A stretch of DNA of 36,311 nt from a virus. Taxonomy: Duplodnaviria; Caudoviricetes. This document shows, one piece after another, positions 602 to 35,046 of the stretch (position 1 is its first letter; each line of letters begins with the position of its first letter). The DNA is taken from positions 1 to 36,311 of IMG/VR virus record IMGVR_UViG_3300008255_000076; one strand, 5' to 3'. The notes beneath the pieces are model-generated. The model was given only the letters and a program-made list of their open reading frames with translations, had not been told where the DNA came from and searched no databases. The translations under genes and the position numbers were made by a program.

Positions 602-757
602 TTATTTGATTATTGCCTGCAATGCGTGAGTGGTAATCGTCCCGACGTAGAAATTGTCTACGGGGCGCTGTCCCGACATTGCCCAAGCGGTGAAGCCTAT
701 AAAGTCAATGACGAGTACAACTACGACGATTGTGAGTGCGATTTGTGCTGTTTTCAT
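602..757 (-). CDS. 51 aa small membrane protein (not in ORF track)
   Basis: Hand translation MKTAQIALTIVVVVLVIDFIGFTAWAMSGQRPVDNFYVGTITTHALQAIIK; fills the gap between its neighbours; hydrophobic N-terminal helix. Confidence 0.7.
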   Translation of the reverse strand: MKTAQIALTIVVVVLVIDFIGFTAWAMSGQRPVDNFYVGTITTHALQAIIK

Positions 758-782: not shown

Positions 783-968
783 TTACTTCTCGTTCAATAC
801 CTCCTCAAAAGTGAAACCCAAAGCCTCAAGCGCTTTCATATCTGCCTCCGTCAAGGTCTTGCGACCAGTGAGGGCAGAAATGGACTGCGCGACTTCGGGC
901 TGTTTGACGTAGAACTTTACTACGCCGTACACCCTGTCTCGGTAGAACTTTATTACCTTTGTTTTCAT
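783..968 (-). CDS. hypothetical protein
   Basis: 61 aa ORF; AAGGA upstream of ATG; first gene after an intergenic regulatory region. Confidence 0.75.
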   Translation of the reverse strand: MKTKVIKFYRDRVYGVVKFYVKQPEVAQSISALTGRKTLTEADMKALEALGFTFEEVLNEK

Positions 969-989
969 AGGCGATTTGTCCTTAATTGC

Positions 990-3440: not shown

Positions 3441-5498
3441 TTAAGCGGAATATCCCTGCAAACGCTCAATGCCTGCGTCGCTTGCAAAGAGCATATCGCC
3501 CTTACCAAGTAACTTTTCGGCACCGTCCTCGTCTAGCATTACTCGGCTGTCCACGCCCTTGCTCATACGCAAGACAACACGAGTTGGGAAGTTAACCTTA
3601 ATATCGCCGTTAATCACGCGTGTTGAGGCACGCTGTGTGGCAATAATGAGGTGGATACCGCACGCACGACCTTTCTGTGCGAGTACCTGAATAAGTGAAC
3701 CAATGTGCGTTTTCATTCCGAGGTCAGCGAACTCGTCAATGATTACGAACTTGTAGCGCATATTGGGCATATCCTCTATGTTCTTTGCCCGAGCCGCTTT
3801 CATTTCCTTGTACCTCTCCTCCATTTCCTCGCACAATGCCTCAAGCGATATTGCGATTGCGGCGTGGTGCGACTGATACTCCTTAACCTTGCCCTCGCCC
3901 TCAAACTGCACCAACTCAACCTGCTTTGGGTCAAAGAGGTGAAGTTCAACACGGGGAATGGTGAGCAACTGGTTTATGAGGTTGTTGAGGAATACTGACT
4001 TGCCCGAACCGCTTGAGCCTGCGACGAGCATATGAGGCGCTTGCCTGATGTCAAAGCGTCGTGCGTCGCCCATTACGGTTTGACCAATTGCAATCTCAAA
4101 CCCTCGTGCCTTTGGCGCCGTTGGGAATGTACGCTCGTCAAGGGGTATCTCAAAGCCTACTAGCCCACTGTCTCTAATTGGCGCTAGGACGCGTATACCC
4201 GACTTTTCTACTACTTGCTCAATGTCCTTGGTGTATGAGGCTATCTTGCTCATTTTAAGCCCAATGGACGGCTCGTAGCGGTACAACTCAACAGAGTTTC
4301 CACGCACTTTTGAATGGAACTCAACCGCAAGCCCGTGTTCGGCGAGCTTCATTTTGATTTTTTCCTCTGTGGTCATATTCTTATAATTTAATGTTTCCGC
4401 AGAAACGAACTTTGCACTGACGGTCTCAAGATATTGCTTCATTGCACCGTCTTTCTGTATTCGCTTCTTAAGGAAGTCAGTAATGTTGTCAACTTTGTTC
4501 TTTTTGAACGCCTTTTCGCGCTCCTCGTCTTGGTCAAGTCGGTGAATGTACGCGAGGATTGAAACCTCTTTGTCGTACATTGCGTACACATTCGGCACGA
4601 ACACCTGCTTGCCGAGCAAGGCGTCCGTAACGTCGTAGTAGTACCGATAAAAGAACTCAAATATGAGAGGGTGGTCGTCAAAGACGATTTCAAACTCTCG
4701 CATTTGTGGTGAATTGTCAGCGTTCTTGCTGATTTTGAACTCCGCGTACACCATTGAGTAAGGCACTTCGCCTGTCTCTGCCGCAACGAGGAAGTAGTTG
4801 AACGCCGCCTGAATGAGTTTTGCGCCGTCAATCGCTTCGGGATTTGAGTACGTTGAGGTTATTTTGTGGTCGCGGATAATCAGCCTGTCTTTGTGGTCGC
4901 GGTACACGAGGTCGGCAGAACCCTTGAGAGGGATTGGCAACACTTTCCCGTCAACCTCAATCTTGTGCTTGAGCATTTTTTCAACAAGCACAACCTCTTT
5001 GACGTACTTTCGGTAATCAAACTCTTTGATGTACCCAAAGAACGCAAAGGCAAACTTCTCGTTCAGTTTCTCTCGGCTTGCAATGACAGTGTTGTATCCA
5101 ATGAAGCCGTCGGAATACCCGAGCAAGTAATCCAAGCCGACTTGGTGAGCAATCTTTATTGCTTCGCCGTCGTCTTGAGGCACTGGCACGTCGGGATTGC
5201 CGCCAAGGTACGTTTCAAGCGCCTTGTGCATTGCTTTCCCGAGAACGTTTGAGGGTGAACTTGTGGTCTCAATTTGGTCGCCGTTAATGTAGTTCACCTT
5301 GAACATAAACGGGTCTGACCCAAACTTGGTGAATGACGAGTACGAGTAATGAGGGACAGGGAAGTTTGCGAACTCCGCAACCAAGCCTGTGTCGTCCTTA
5401 CTGGTTCTTTTCGTTACCGTCGGCAACGTCAGTTTCGCCAATTTGGATTTCCGCTTCACCCGTTGAGGTTTCTTGGTTGTGGTCATTGTCGTTGTCAT
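3441..5498 (-). CDS. PD-(D/E)XK (RecB/AddB-like) nuclease fused to an FtsK/SpoIIIE alpha-beta ATPase motor
   Basis: N-half: SYSS...GKAMHKALE...LKGSADL...IIRDHK...QAAFNY. C-half: FtsK-alpha-like YRYEPSIGLKMSKI...IRVLAPI...GFEIP, Walker A AGSSGSGKS, LFDPKQVEL, Walker B IIDEFADL, GRACGIHLIIATQR, GAEKLLGKGDML. Start uncertain (5498, 5486, or TTG 5384). Confidence 0.9.
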   Translation of the reverse strand: MTTTMTTTKKPQRVKRKSKLAKLTLPTVTKRTSKDDTGLVAEFANFPVPHYSYSSFTKFGSDPFMFKVNYINGDQIETTSSPSNVLGKAMHKALETYLGGNPDVPVPQDDGEAIKIAHQVGLDYLLGYSDGFIGYNTVIASREKLNEKFAFAFFGYIKEFDYRKYVKEVVLVEKMLKHKIEVDGKVLPIPLKGSADLVYRDHKDRLIIRDHKITSTYSNPEAIDGAKLIQAAFNYFLVAAETGEVPYSMVYAEFKISKNADNSPQMREFEIVFDDHPLIFEFFYRYYYDVTDALLGKQVFVPNVYAMYDKEVSILAYIHRLDQDEEREKAFKKNKVDNITDFLKKRIQKDGAMKQYLETVSAKFVSAETLNYKNMTTEEKIKMKLAEHGLAVEFHSKVRGNSVELYRYEPSIGLKMSKIASYTKDIEQVVEKSGIRVLAPIRDSGLVGFEIPLDERTFPTAPKARGFEIAIGQTVMGDARRFDIRQAPHMLVAGSSGSGKSVFLNNLINQLLTIPRVELHLFDPKQVELVQFEGEGKVKEYQSHHAAIAISLEALCEEMEERYKEMKAARAKNIEDMPNMRYKFVIIDEFADLGMKTHIGSLIQVLAQKGRACGIHLIIATQRASTRVINGDIKVNFPTRVVLRMSKGVDSRVMLDEDGAEKLLGKGDMLFASDAGIERLQGYSA

Positions 5499-6316: not shown

Positions 6317-6517
6317 TTAAGCGCCTGTTTCCGCAGGTGCTTTTTGTTTTGGGTGGAACTGGTCGTAAACGCGCCAAGCCTCAAAGAGAGCCTTAAGCCC
6401 GTTCGGGTTCACCCTCTGTAATTCGCTCAACTTCGCCTTTTTAATATCGCCGTCGTACTTCTCAAGTAGAGAGTAAAACGTGATACCTTTTGCTTTTCTT
6501 GTAAGTGTTGTTTTCAT
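6317..6517 (-). CDS. hypothetical protein (start moved to ATG 6517)
   Basis: ATG at 6517 lies 1 nt after the stop of the upstream small ORF. Confidence 0.7.
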   Translation of the reverse strand: MKTTLTRKAKGITFYSLLEKYDGDIKKAKLSELQRVNPNGLKALFEAWRVYDQFHPKQKAPAETGA

Positions 6518-6518
6518 A

Positions 6519-6662
6519 CTAAGTTGATTTCTTTGCGTTTTTCCAACGCTTCTCAACTAACTTTTTCATATGGTCTTTGCCATACTTCTTGACCACCGCC
6601 TTGCCTCCCTTGCTTTGGATACTCGGCTCGGCTTTCTTGGTCTTGAGTTTCGTTTTGCTCAT
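6519..6662 (-). CDS. 47 aa basic protein with a KGG-like motif (not in ORF track)
   Basis: Hand translation MSKTKLKTKKAEPSIQSKGGKAVVKKYGKDHMKKLVEKRWKNAKKST; first ORF after the leftward promoter. Confidence 0.7.
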   Translation of the reverse strand: MSKTKLKTKKAEPSIQSKGGKAVVKKYGKDHMKKLVEKRWKNAKKST

Positions 6663-6717
6663 AAGTTGAGTGCTAATTCTTAACGTTTAATTTGTCGTAC
6701 CGACCTCCGACTTTCAT

Positions 6718-6746
6718 AGTATACTCATACGGCTGTATTACGGCAA
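6718..6746 (-). promoter_or_regulatory. sigma70-type promoter for the recombination/replication operon
   Basis: TTGCCG (6746-6741), 17 nt spacer, TATACT (6723-6718); the -35 lies inside palindrome 6739-6752; DnaA box at 6757-6765. Confidence 0.7.
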
Positions 6747-6789
6747 GCCGTATACCTGTGGATAAGTCCCGAAATGGGCGCATAAAGTA

Positions 6790-6819
6790 AGGACAAACTG
6801 TGTACAGTCAGGGTATAAT
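6790..6819 (+). promoter_or_regulatory. rightward promoter, probably giving a leaderless mRNA
   Basis: TATAAT 6814-6819 with ATG at 6826; weak -35 AGGACA 6790-6795. Confidence 0.6.
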
Positions 6820-6825
6820 GTGTGT

Positions 6826-7176
6826 ATGAAAAATTATTTGGTAGTTCCAAAGACACTCTCAAAATATAGGAACGTGCAAACCGAGTACAAGGGTCTCAAG
6901 TTTATGTCCAAAAAGGAGGCTGAATACGCAATGCAGTTGGACTATATGCGCAAGGCTACCTCCCCCCGTGATAGGGTCGTGGAGTGGGTGCCGCAGATGC
7001 CGTTTCAGGTAATTTTGAATGAAAAGAAAATCTGCAAATACATTGCCGACTTTAAGGTAACGTACGCCGACGGGCGTGTTGAAATTGTGGACGTTAAGGG
7101 GGTGCGCACCGACGTATACCGCCTCAAAAAGAAACTGGTTGAAGCACAGTACGGTATCACTATCGTTGAGGTGTAA
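6826..7176 (+). CDS. DUF1064-family PD-(D/E)XK nuclease (putative resolvase)
   Basis: SKYRN...FMSKKEA...YIADF...IVDVKG...YRLKKKL. Confidence 0.85.
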   Translation: MKNYLVVPKTLSKYRNVQTEYKGLKFMSKKEAEYAMQLDYMRKATSPRDRVVEWVPQMPFQVILNEKKICKYIADFKVTYADGRVEIVDVKGVRTDVYRLKKKLVEAQYGITIVEV

Positions 7177-22347: not shown

Positions 22348-22456
22348 TGAGCGTTCCAACGCTCACCACTAACGGTTACGGTATGGCGATTTACTTTCTC
22401 AAGTATACACCGTACCCGTCAGGGTGTGAGGATTTGAACAGGCGCCTATCCACCCT
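22348..22456 (-). ncRNA. candidate structured RNA B (intergenic)
   Basis: AGGGTG/CACCCT stem enclosing GTTCAAATCC; 13-nt helix 22372-22384/22407-22419 capped by TACTT-GAGA-AAGTA; hairpin 22348-22365. Confidence 0.55.
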
Positions 22457-25049: not shown

Positions 25050-25107
25050 AATTTTAATCGTTATATGCGGTTAATAATTGTGGGCTTTGGCTCCTAAGTT
25101 ATAGGGC

Positions 25108-26909: not shown

Positions 26910-27101
26910 AATACTCGCTTCCTTGTAAAAATGGGGGTAAAAACAAGAAAACGGACGCTCGTTTCGGTGGGACTAGCACCTAACGGGATTGCGATTTGTT
27001 ATCCCGAGCCTATCGGCTCGGTGTTGAGGGGTAGCAGGTTGCAAAGGACAAATCGCCAAAGCCCAAGCATTACTACTCCCCAACACCGAACCGACAGTAT
27101 T
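26910..27101 (-). ncRNA. candidate structured RNA A with loop-loop pairing, upstream of scaffold/MCP
   Basis: 20-bp helix 27078-27097/27010-27029 with three G-U pairs on minus; apical GCGAUUUGU complementary to hairpin loop ACAAAUCGC (26991-26999); further 11-bp stem; closing AAUACU/AGUAUU. Confidence 0.7.
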
Positions 27102-27127
27102 TATTTTTCAATGAACTTCGGCACACC

Positions 27128-29875: not shown

Positions 29876-29971
29876 TTAAAAGCCCACTGATAAAGTGGGG
29901 TTAATAAATGACCGAACACCGCGAGAGGTTGCGGTTGAGAGGGTTGCTACTTGTGAGGTGTTTTTCGCCAT
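29876..29971 (-). CDS. possible 31 aa peptide
   Basis: MAKNTSQVATLSTATSRGVRSFINPTLSVGF; preceded by the same 17-bp element found upstream of recT. Confidence 0.35.
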   Translation of the reverse strand: MAKNTSQVATLSTATSRGVRSFINPTLSVGF

Positions 29972-30028
29972 AATCTTTAGCGCTAACTTGTAAGATTTTG
30001 GCGATTTCTCACTGTTTACATATGAAAA

Positions 30029-30309: not shown

Positions 30310-30320
30310 ATTATACCACA
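30310..30320 (-). promoter_or_regulatory. extended -10 promoter for the head operon
   Basis: TGTGGTATAAT on minus, in the TerL-downstream gap. Confidence 0.65.
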
Positions 30321-32919: not shown

Positions 32920-33606
32920 TTATTTGTTATCAGGCTTGGTGCCTGCGTTCTTGTAAGGTTTGGTTGGCTGTCTGTCCTCGCCGTCCCCGAAGTACATATC
33001 TATTCCGAACGAGTGGTCAATCTCGTGTTGAAAGACGTGAGCCTTAAAACTCTCAACCTCCTCGGTTACGGTCTTGAGCCACTTAAAGCCCAAGAATGAA
33101 CGTAAAATCTGATACCGAACGACAACAGTGTGGTACCGCTTCGTGTTTTTCTTGGTGCGGCTAGGGTACGACATACAAGCGTCAGGTGCCTCAAGTAGGT
33201 TTGATACCTTTTTCCAAGCCTTAGTGATTTTTGCTTCGTACTCGTGAGAGTTTTGCTTACGCTGTATCTCACGCTTAGGTACCAAGCGCTCAATCTCGTC
33301 CAACGCCTCAACGACTTCTGCGTTGAATATCACTTGAGCAGGGAAGTAAAAGTTTTTACTGTTCTGTTGGCGCGTGTGCTTCTTGCTCTTTGCGACTAGT
33401 TCGCTTGAGATAGCGAACATTGCAAGTGGTTCCTCGGATACCTGACAGTGGCTTATTGCGACAGCCGACTTCCAGTTTCCCGTGAAACCTGCCTTGTTGC
33501 CCTCCTCAATGAATGAGGCAAGCGCCTTAGCCTCCTCGTATGCACGTCCGAGGTTCTTGCGCGTAACGCGCTCTGACGGCTTGTGGTGAGGCTTAATCAG
33601 TTCCAT
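32920..33606 (-). CDS. def: divergent peptide deformylase
   Basis: Motif 1 AVAISHCQ, motif 2 DACMS (canonical EGCLS), motif 3 QHEIDH, in the correct order. Confidence 0.8.
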   Translation of the reverse strand: MELIKPHHKPSERVTRKNLGRAYEEAKALASFIEEGNKAGFTGNWKSAVAISHCQVSEEPLAMFAISSELVAKSKKHTRQQNSKNFYFPAQVIFNAEVVEALDEIERLVPKREIQRKQNSHEYEAKITKAWKKVSNLLEAPDACMSYPSRTKKNTKRYHTVVVRYQILRSFLGFKWLKTVTEEVESFKAHVFQHEIDHSFGIDMYFGDGEDRQPTKPYKNAGTKPDNK

Positions 33607-34209: not shown

Positions 34210-34240
34210 AGCAATTTGTTAAATGACCTTAATTTTTAAT

Positions 34241-34404: not shown

Positions 34405-35022
34405 TCATAGTTTTGATACTGTCGGCACCTTATCAACAACGGCGCTCTCAACGATTATGAATTGGTCTGTGCCTGCCTCCTTGAGGTCAGGGTGCGCCTC
34501 AAGGTACTTACCGATTACCATTTCAGAGTTCTTGCGAACCTCGGTCAAAGAGCAGGTGAAATACACCTTGTCTCTCGTCCCTGCGTGGATAATCAGCACG
34601 CCGACCTTTTCCTTGCTCAAGCGGTTAATGATTACCGCCTCTGCCTTGGTGTCCTCGGGCGTGCGGTTATGTAGGTCAAGGCGGTTAACCTCAACCTTTA
34701 CGTCTTGTCGCCCGTCCTCGTGTCGGGTAATCGTGGTCTTTTTCCCGTCCTCGCTCTCGTCTACTTCAACGAGTGGGTGTTCCCAACGACTGCCTTTGTG
34801 GGTCTGCTCAATGGTCATTTGCTTCTTGAAAATGAACGTAGGGACAAGCGACCCTGCGTGTTCGGGGCTTGCTTGCCACTCAAACTCGTCGGCGCGGAAT
34901 ACCTTACCGTCGCTAGGGAAGCGAACCCCGTAATTGTGCTGACCGAAATAGTCGTCAAGCCACTCTGCTGTCTCAAAATGCAGGTCTAGTGGGTGTTGTG
35001 TTTTTCTTTGATATGAACTCAT
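34405..35022 (-). CDS. hypothetical protein
   Basis: 205 aa ORF with phage-like codon pattern. Confidence 0.75.
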   Translation of the reverse strand: MSSYQRKTQHPLDLHFETAEWLDDYFGQHNYGVRFPSDGKVFRADEFEWQASPEHAGSLVPTFIFKKQMTIEQTHKGSRWEHPLVEVDESEDGKKTTITRHEDGRQDVKVEVNRLDLHNRTPEDTKAEAVIINRLSKEKVGVLIIHAGTRDKVYFTCSLTEVRKNSEMVIGKYLEAHPDLKEAGTDQFIIVESAVVDKVPTVSKL

Positions 35023-35046
35023 AGCGATTTGTTGTGATTATTAAAA

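Follow-up and report, generated by a model that had tools for sequence, protein, structure and literature searches.

A late-operon hairpin RNA predicted to pair through its loop with leaders of the phage's own genes

The window, that is the whole 36,311-nt stretch of DNA analyzed here (IMG/VR record IMGVR_UViG_3300008255_000076), is the complete genome of a 36-kb phage and carries a 123-nt terminal repeat. It is about 92% coding and its minus strand carries all annotated genes, including those for the terminase, portal, a scaffold-like protein, major capsid, tail proteins, RecT, an FtsK-like protein and HU. The genes at 3441-5498 and 32920-33606 (minus strand) encode, respectively, a PD-(D/E)XK nuclease fused to an FtsK ATPase domain and a peptide deformylase. 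Two spacers, 969-1079 and 6557-6858 (minus strand), both hold an inverted repeat, ATACGGCTTGCCGTA, and a TTATCCACA box, which we take to be a DnaA box; before g61 these elements are kept in four relatives, and they likely form an operator or origin. The second of these spacers also contains an unlisted small basic open reading frame (about 6682-6557, minus strand, apparent start ATGAGCAAA), and the reading frame at 6317 has its probable start at 6517.

Shine-Dalgarno (SD)-like 5-mers are nearly absent from these genomes (0/45 leaders of the window and 12/919 leaders of the family), so that the AAGGA ahead of g61, noted in the original prediction, is not an SD site. A relative of the terminase (55%) lies in host-gene context in a Patescibacteria bin (L188), and the anti-SD motif is reported in only 48% of Parcubacteria in excerpts of PMC9297842. 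Together with the SD-poor leaders, this suggests that the phage host probably belongs to the Patescibacteria; the assignment is no more than probable, since L188 contains neither the portal nor the RNA described below and the remaining three genome matches are in bins with other labels.

Between the gene that follows the portal and the scaffold gene, the late operon contains a 243-nt spacer (folding z = -4.9) that holds a long hairpin, here named RNA A (Table 1). We extracted 58 distinct portal-capsid spacers from relative loci and assigned an RNA A loop in 51 of them, 42 by exact word and 9 by hand; one of the seven others is an artefact inside a scaffold gene. Two-sided changes occur at 14 of the 21 consensus stem pairs across 15 aligned relatives. 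The coding-sense strand folds lower in 41/51 loci and has more G-U pairs (310 vs 150), and a decoy on the opposite strand was ruled out by these counts and by the wobble bias of the sites. The word TTGGCG is found in 39/51 loops and a YUNR-type word, as this motif is generally defined, in 50/51. Loop seeds fall into GGCGAUU (30 loci), GGCGAUA (7), GGCGACG (5), GGCGAAU (3), GGCAAAU (2) and four singletons. The loops of L046 and L095, assigned by hand and lacking clear targets, are kept in these n=51 counts and were left out of the site survey, gate energies, loop ranking, held-out test, post-capsid tests and count of scaffold and capsid leaders.

An 18-nt loop pattern has 34 exact matches in IMG/VR. 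Rfam yields no match in the window at the gathering score and only weak unrelated ones at E up to 10, its sole match in eight relatives is one tRNA located elsewhere than RNA A, ARAGORN calls no tRNA, and blastn against 50,697 annotated phage records returns no match to it. We found no description of RNA A in the literature, judged from titles and the starts of abstracts. Four loop words are absent from six supplement files of a phage structured-RNA screen (PMC10690425), of which three more files, outside the search, may hold RNA A as an unnamed candidate. Sequences from RNA libraries (4/23 listed runs, all of them contigs, which cannot show a transcript) span the locus about evenly.

A promoter scan requiring a -35 box called no sigma-70 promoter before RNA A. 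The boxA-like pattern upstream occurs in 35/51 loci vs 2% of random windows, with the pattern fitted after the data were seen; 31/51 loci are at most two mismatches from the consensus GYTCTTTAANA given in excerpts of PMC5725501, a raw count without a null against a consensus that may not be the host's, the Patescibacteria bin containing no 16S from which the host boxA might be read. The 3' strand of the RNA A stem may also form a small alternative hairpin (27021-27004, minus strand), and it can alternate between 5' GGUUC and 3' GGCUC partners, a triple kept in 35/51 loci that may serve to switch the fold or to signal processing. Ahead of the scaffold gene, the loop of a third hairpin (26953-26916, minus strand) is complementary to the scaffold start (26881-26877), and the two covary, CCCAU going with AUGGG and GGCAU with AUGCC; 32/52 spacers contain the exact complement (raw count without a null). 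By its sequence, this hairpin is likely a cis pseudoknot operator of scaffold translation.

Table 1. RNA A, its complementary sites and neighboring features in the window
Feature	Position	Strand	Remarks
RNA A	27004..27097	-	Long stem (arms 27097-27073 and 27034-27010) with an apical hairpin on top
Guide region of RNA A	27044..27069	-	11-nt loop (27060-27050) and both weak apical stem arms
boxA-like element before RNA A	27105..27116	-	Putative function
Cis complement in loop of next hairpin	26991..26999	-	Complementary to RNA A guide; possible latch
Post-capsid site	25081..25091	-	11 nt, complementary to 5' half of guide; 31 nt before next ATG
Gate site	29997..30007	-	5' arm of hairpin; matches all 11 loop nucleotides
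31-aa leader ORF	29876..29971	-	Last codons overlap terminator-like hairpin 29899-29883, which immediately precedes g120 and portal
Extended -10-like element before g89	30310..30318	-	TATAAT and upstream TG in 7/7 relatives
g61 site	970..983	-	14 nt; touches the g61 ATG
g61 (target)	783..968	-	61-aa phage protein; 15 close homologues
g205 site	35024..35032	-	Touches the ATG of g205 (34405-35022)
HU-leader site (weak)	34211..34219	-	One G-U; 2/8 orthologues
RNA B site	22384..22392	-	One-sided bulge of RNA B, leader of a LamG-domain tail gene (likely start 22333)
g51 coding site (doubtful)	738..746	-	Codons 4-7 of g51

The original prediction proposed that the loop of RNA A is complementary to several leaders, and all the complements that it named are present on the minus strand, including the HU-leader site with its one G-U and the perfect 14-nt match before g61, which ends 1 nt short of the ATG. 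A perfect 14-mer is expected 0.0017 times anywhere in the genome (order-3 Markov model). When 1500 sets of 44 leaders were simulated under each of two Markov orders, 12 nt was never reached, and the probability of two leaders with at least 9 nt was at most 0.003. The word ACAAATCGC has 4 copies vs 0.22 expected, and AAATCGC, counted as had been proposed against a Markov null, has 10 copies vs 3.5 expected, 5 of them in the small non-coding fraction. The claim that the hits are mostly non-coding is borne out for the longer matches but not overall, because four copies missing from the earlier list (1329, 9321, 23827 and 26259) are coding, as is the one in g51. Likewise, only the first 11 nt of the 17-mer described as the loop (27060-27044) are unpaired, the remainder being the 3' arm of the weak apical stem, and the best-conserved site, that following the capsid gene, had been overlooked.

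Compensatory changes were sought in the relatives, where loop and sites were found to change together, not independently. Non-coding DNA holds the cognate 7-mer at about 10 times the density found in coding DNA (68 copies in 86.6 kb vs 54 in 685 kb), and the matrix of seed classes is near-diagonal in non-coding sequence but not in coding sequence. Variant loops are found on separate branches of a quick portal tree, and several are matched by variant gate sites (L088/L186, L089/L091, L036, L041, L106 and the L053 clade; the gate is described below). We count by eye about 7-9 independent loop changes on this unfinished tree; shared ancestry inflates all counts given here, which overstate the number of independent events because the loci are related. 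In an unbiased ranking among 21 loops, the phage's own loop is in the top three for 26/43 loci and, among the variant-seed phages, first in 7/12 and in the top three in 10/12. This ranking and the fixed post-capsid window used below are the unbiased versions of the cognate ranks from the shuffle-test set, which are not independent because gate positions were picked from earlier output. One-letter internal departures from the complement are G-U compatible in 17/25 non-coding sites and of the opposite kind in 1/25, compared with 27/76 and 11/76 in coding DNA.

From these sequence comparisons, the loop almost certainly pairs with many of the phage's own leaders. The original prediction had left room for a protein-bound AAAUCGC leader motif, and one could also think of a DNA motif, a host translation-context motif or chance, with the loop as a decoy or inverted copy, since AAATCGC looks similar to the A-rich ...CTATG context in which starts of this genome generally lie. 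However, the sites follow the loop and its arms letter for letter in at least six arm classes, departures on one strand are predominantly G-U compatible, and leader-trained nulls reject chance. Loop-site covariation and the G-U-compatible departures thus argue for RNA-RNA pairing rather than a protein motif; covariation refutes the protein-bound motif in particular, and this whole group of explanations is scarcely credible.

The site that lies between terminase and portal, which we call the gate, has an ATG behind it in 37/44 loci, the other 7/44 being without a gate site that has an ATG. In the window, the 3' arm of the gate hairpin is ATGGCGA, the start of the leader ORF, and 14.8 kcal/mol is needed to open the start region, a cost that site occupancy reduces to 5.4; this gate exceeds all 40 shuffles. 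The median opening cost at gates is 10.8 kcal/mol vs 3.7 in 595 control leaders, and site occupancy lowers it to 4.0, with a drop of at least 2 in 30/37 (the L067 start was set by hand). Among gates picked from earlier output, L106 being left out and L016 lacking an ATG, 21/31 exceed all 40 shuffles, while folding finds no hidden start at L044 and L067. Gate hairpins follow three designs, and in each of them the site is on or within the start-hiding strand. The partner of the site is ATGGCGA itself in the window, L009, L035, L069 and L142, and a copy of the loop word immediately ahead of the AUG in the L053 clade, L052 and L102; in L056, L088, L089, L124 and L036 the site occupies the loop plus the 5' arm of a short AUG-containing hairpin. 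Since the site is usually inside the start-hiding hairpin, pairing is predicted to activate at the gate.

The energy model, which ignores loop topology, gives a net binding of RNA A of -4.1 kcal/mol at the window gate and a median of -5.6 in 31 relatives (below -3 in 20/31, positive in 4). Such a near-balanced energy could fit a threshold switch, capture during transcription only, or no capture. A leader ORF of 28-31 aa followed by a hairpin is present in 6/6 close relatives examined, the window included. The hairpin has a CCCAC/GUGGG stem with a short U run and was not flagged by a terminator scan. The promoter scan, which needs a -35 box, does not flag the extended -10-like element ahead of g89; from its sequence, this element is likely where the transcript extending to the gate begins. 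The minus strand carries the word AAATCTTACAAGTTAGC within the gate hairpin (about 29999-29982) and again before the RecT gene (6307-6291).

Other sites touch a start codon. The g61 site is kept in 5/5 orthologues, one of them through a G-U change, and the g205 site in 7/7, with modeled net binding of -10.9 and -8.4 kcal/mol, respectively. The product of g61 has no Pfam or PHROG match, and the idea that it is a repressor found no support; its predicted structure (pLDDT 83) matches uncharacterised phage proteins only. In the early region, AUG-touching sites lie in open leaders (median 2.4 kcal/mol, n=19). A strict rule by which early sites touch the AUG and late sites sit in hairpins fails, 9/28 AUG-touching sites being in the late region, among them those of g89 orthologues and of a glycosyltransferase-like gene. 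The latter, a tail-region gene, carries such a site in four relatives (L056:14457-15209, L093:9491-10249, L132:19738-20556 and L099:10189-10968). Held-out regions of eight distant phages (about 170 kb) contain 7 non-coding vs 37 coding sites and, at the threshold used, no AUG-touching site, which suggests that a repression arm would be largely confined to close relatives.

Conservation of the other sites named in the original prediction is uneven. The RNA B site is kept in 5/5 close relatives folded, mostly as a bulge, with a modeled net binding of -8.7 kcal/mol. RNA B itself (22467-22345, minus strand), a structured leader that is conserved, contains the T-loop-like word GTTCAA and the palindrome AGGCGCCT, and its stems are kept among five close relatives. 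The HU-leader site is present but poorly conserved, and its modeled -4.1 kcal/mol is not better than that of some coding 7-mers. The copy within g51 has a modeled net binding of -6.1 kcal/mol, compared with -1.4 to -6.4 for four coding 7-mers; it is found in 2/3 orthologues shown, and both relatives hold a leader site that is lost in the window. The cis complement downstream of RNA A, proposed as a latch on its loop, covaries with the loop in L041, L089 and L091, but support is otherwise weak, with 27/51 spacers containing it under a loose rule without a null. Further sites are found at the portal, at an SU10-adaptor-like gene and at tail genes, and many sites of structural genes lie 17-54 nt upstream, in open A-rich leaders.

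We propose, at even odds, that RNA A is a trans-acting two-way switch: it would unlock the portal operon, and it would block those genes in which a site reaches the start codon. The UUGGCG word of the loop, which is of the U-turn type, would mediate a rapid kissing contact, and pairing would then extend into either arm. At the gate, where the target strand would normally be paired with the start region, pairing with RNA A is predicted to free that region, and in the clade of the window the freed 31-aa leader ORF might then be translated across the terminator-like hairpin. Because RNA A is itself downstream of its gate, positive feedback and a sharp late switch may follow. At g61, g205 and similar genes, a duplex over the AUG-adjacent nucleotides would block initiation. 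Of the antisense network that was originally predicted, covariation thus upholds the pairing of loop and leaders, whereas general silencing fits the AUG-touching sites only. In its most ambitious form, RNA A would be the master early-to-late switch of the whole family without a protein regulator, silencing early genes, opening a gate with positive feedback and serving in trans as a ribosome-delivery tag about 30 nt upstream that replaces SD pairing in Patescibacteria; we consider this improbable.

The post-capsid site was examined in a fixed 70-nt window directly after the capsid stop codon in 45 phages. A perfect complement of at least 9 nt is present in 35/45 phages vs 0.12 expected, and it follows each phage's own variable 5' arm in a near-diagonal class matrix, with matching sites for GGCUUU (18/20), GGGGUU (6/7), GGGAUU (2/3), AGGAUU (3/3) and GACUUU (2/2). 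The few off-diagonal cells are mostly between classes that share five letters. Among 33 loops, the cognate one gives the longest or tied run in 26/45. The site precedes the AUG by a median of 30 nt (range 8 to 65 nt), and folding predicts an essentially unchanged accessibility of the start when it is occupied (3.8 to 4.1). Within the two-way switch, the post-capsid site and others 17-54 nt upstream might conceivably serve protection or processing of the downstream message.

The most conserved site shares the strand of RNA A and lies 2 kb downstream of it, immediately beyond scaffold and capsid, and a boxA-like element precedes RNA A in most loci, as would suit a long-range architecture in cis. 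RNA A, held on Nus-modified polymerase via boxA or folded back in the late message, would pair with downstream sites for processing or stability, and the upstream and early sites would be secondary. This reading is of low probability given that the gate, about 3 kb upstream, covaries too, and that the conserved g61 and g205 sites are on other likely transcripts. Alternatively, RNA A could recruit ribosomes, other conserved parts of it binding the small subunit or an initiation factor and tethering it to the leaders of an SD-less host, with the AUG-touching sites blocked as a side effect. Near-zero SD use, the position of many structural-gene sites in open A-rich leaders, the post-capsid median and the conserved stem-base words of RNA A, which are free of any other assigned role, all accord with recruitment. 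Spacing, however, varies from 8 to 65 nt, and scaffold and capsid, the most highly expressed genes, have no sites (a perfect run of at least 8 nt occurs in 0/49 scaffold and 0/47 capsid leaders), and we regard recruitment as very unlikely.

The same absence of sites at scaffold and capsid, set against their presence at the portal, SU10-adaptor-like and tail genes, would suit a pure brake on virion stoichiometry. In that model RNA A, made with the scaffold and capsid message, would repress everything else (portal, neck, tail and early genes), whether through kissing contacts with target loops, by masking AUGs, or by occluding the A-rich loading zone that lies upstream in SD-less messages. Classic plasmid antisense targets present their site in a hairpin loop, as does one of the gate designs, and the strand that carries the post-capsid site does not hide a start. 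In the other two designs, however, it is the target strand itself that pairs, either with ATGGCGA or with the 20 nt ahead of the AUG; binding must therefore free the start, and the gate site is then 25-52 nt upstream, beyond the ribosome footprint. A brake of this kind is unlikely, though a serious contender. The two-way switch, our preferred model, combines the predicted opening of the gate with repression where a site touches the AUG.

Several known RNAs resemble parts of this model. RNAIII of S. aureus, DsrA and RprA acting on rpoS, and synthetic toehold riboregulators cover the starts of some messages and open hairpins of others; these are host regulators or designed parts, whereas RNA A is predicted to use one loop for both roles on SD-less phage messages. 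The C4 RNA is a tRNA-like cloverleaf with two guide loops, and the specificity of C4 and CI RNAs changes by paired mutation. RNA A, in contrast, is a single long hairpin with one guide and no Rfam match, its sites are at the portal operon, after the capsid gene and at tail and early genes rather than at an immunity (icd-ant) operon, and no antirepressor or integrase was found among 51 window proteins scanned. Inc and RNAI lie on the strand opposite to their one target, to which they are fully complementary, whereas the sites of RNA A are 8-17 nt long, kilobases away and on the same strand as the guide. RNA A does share with Inc/RNAI of I-complex plasmids (PMC10724649; titles cited in PMC3753616) a hairpin loop with the kissing word 5'-UUGGCG-3' and upper-stem interior loops, but here the word is borne by the guide and the targets are many, short and distant.

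C4 of P1/P7 and CI RNA of P4 are, like RNA A, encoded by phages on the same strand as their targets and pair through short exposed sequences (parts of PMC8198154 and PMC4825925); as presented there, they repress one immunity operon to keep lysogeny, while RNA A addresses late structural and early genes with predicted activation at the gate. The closest parallel for activation is IsrK of the Salmonella prophage Gifsy-1, which, in the account available from PMC4825925, targets in trans a transcript of its own operon that is inactive, unfolds a structure covering the start of an upstream ORF and so turns on a downstream gene. RNA A is likewise a phage RNA that would act in trans within its own operon by a predicted opening of an upstream ORF start, but IsrK is the 5' end of its one phage target reported in that account, whereas RNA A is downstream of its gate and has sites at many genes, and we noticed no sequence likeness between the two. 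By its short seed complementary to several unlinked messages and kept by covariation, RNA A resembles trans-encoded sRNAs at the sequence level; it would work most like IsrK and C4/CI, yet by these tests it is a member of none of the families compared.

Taken together, the phage antisense RNAs compared here (C4, CI, IsrK and the single-target cases in the accessible text of a 2025 review of phage sRNAs, PMC12197685) each control one or few genes in these accounts, whereas here a single loop addresses numerous genes of the phage that encodes it, in a family with terminases down to about 47% identity. The natural paired changes of loop and site are ready-made specificity controls, and variant loop and leader pairs constitute natural orthogonal riboregulators testable in vitro without culturing the host. 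If the model is true, an RNA would set the timing of late genes in these phages, and the family would provide a handle on translation control in SD-less Patescibacteria.
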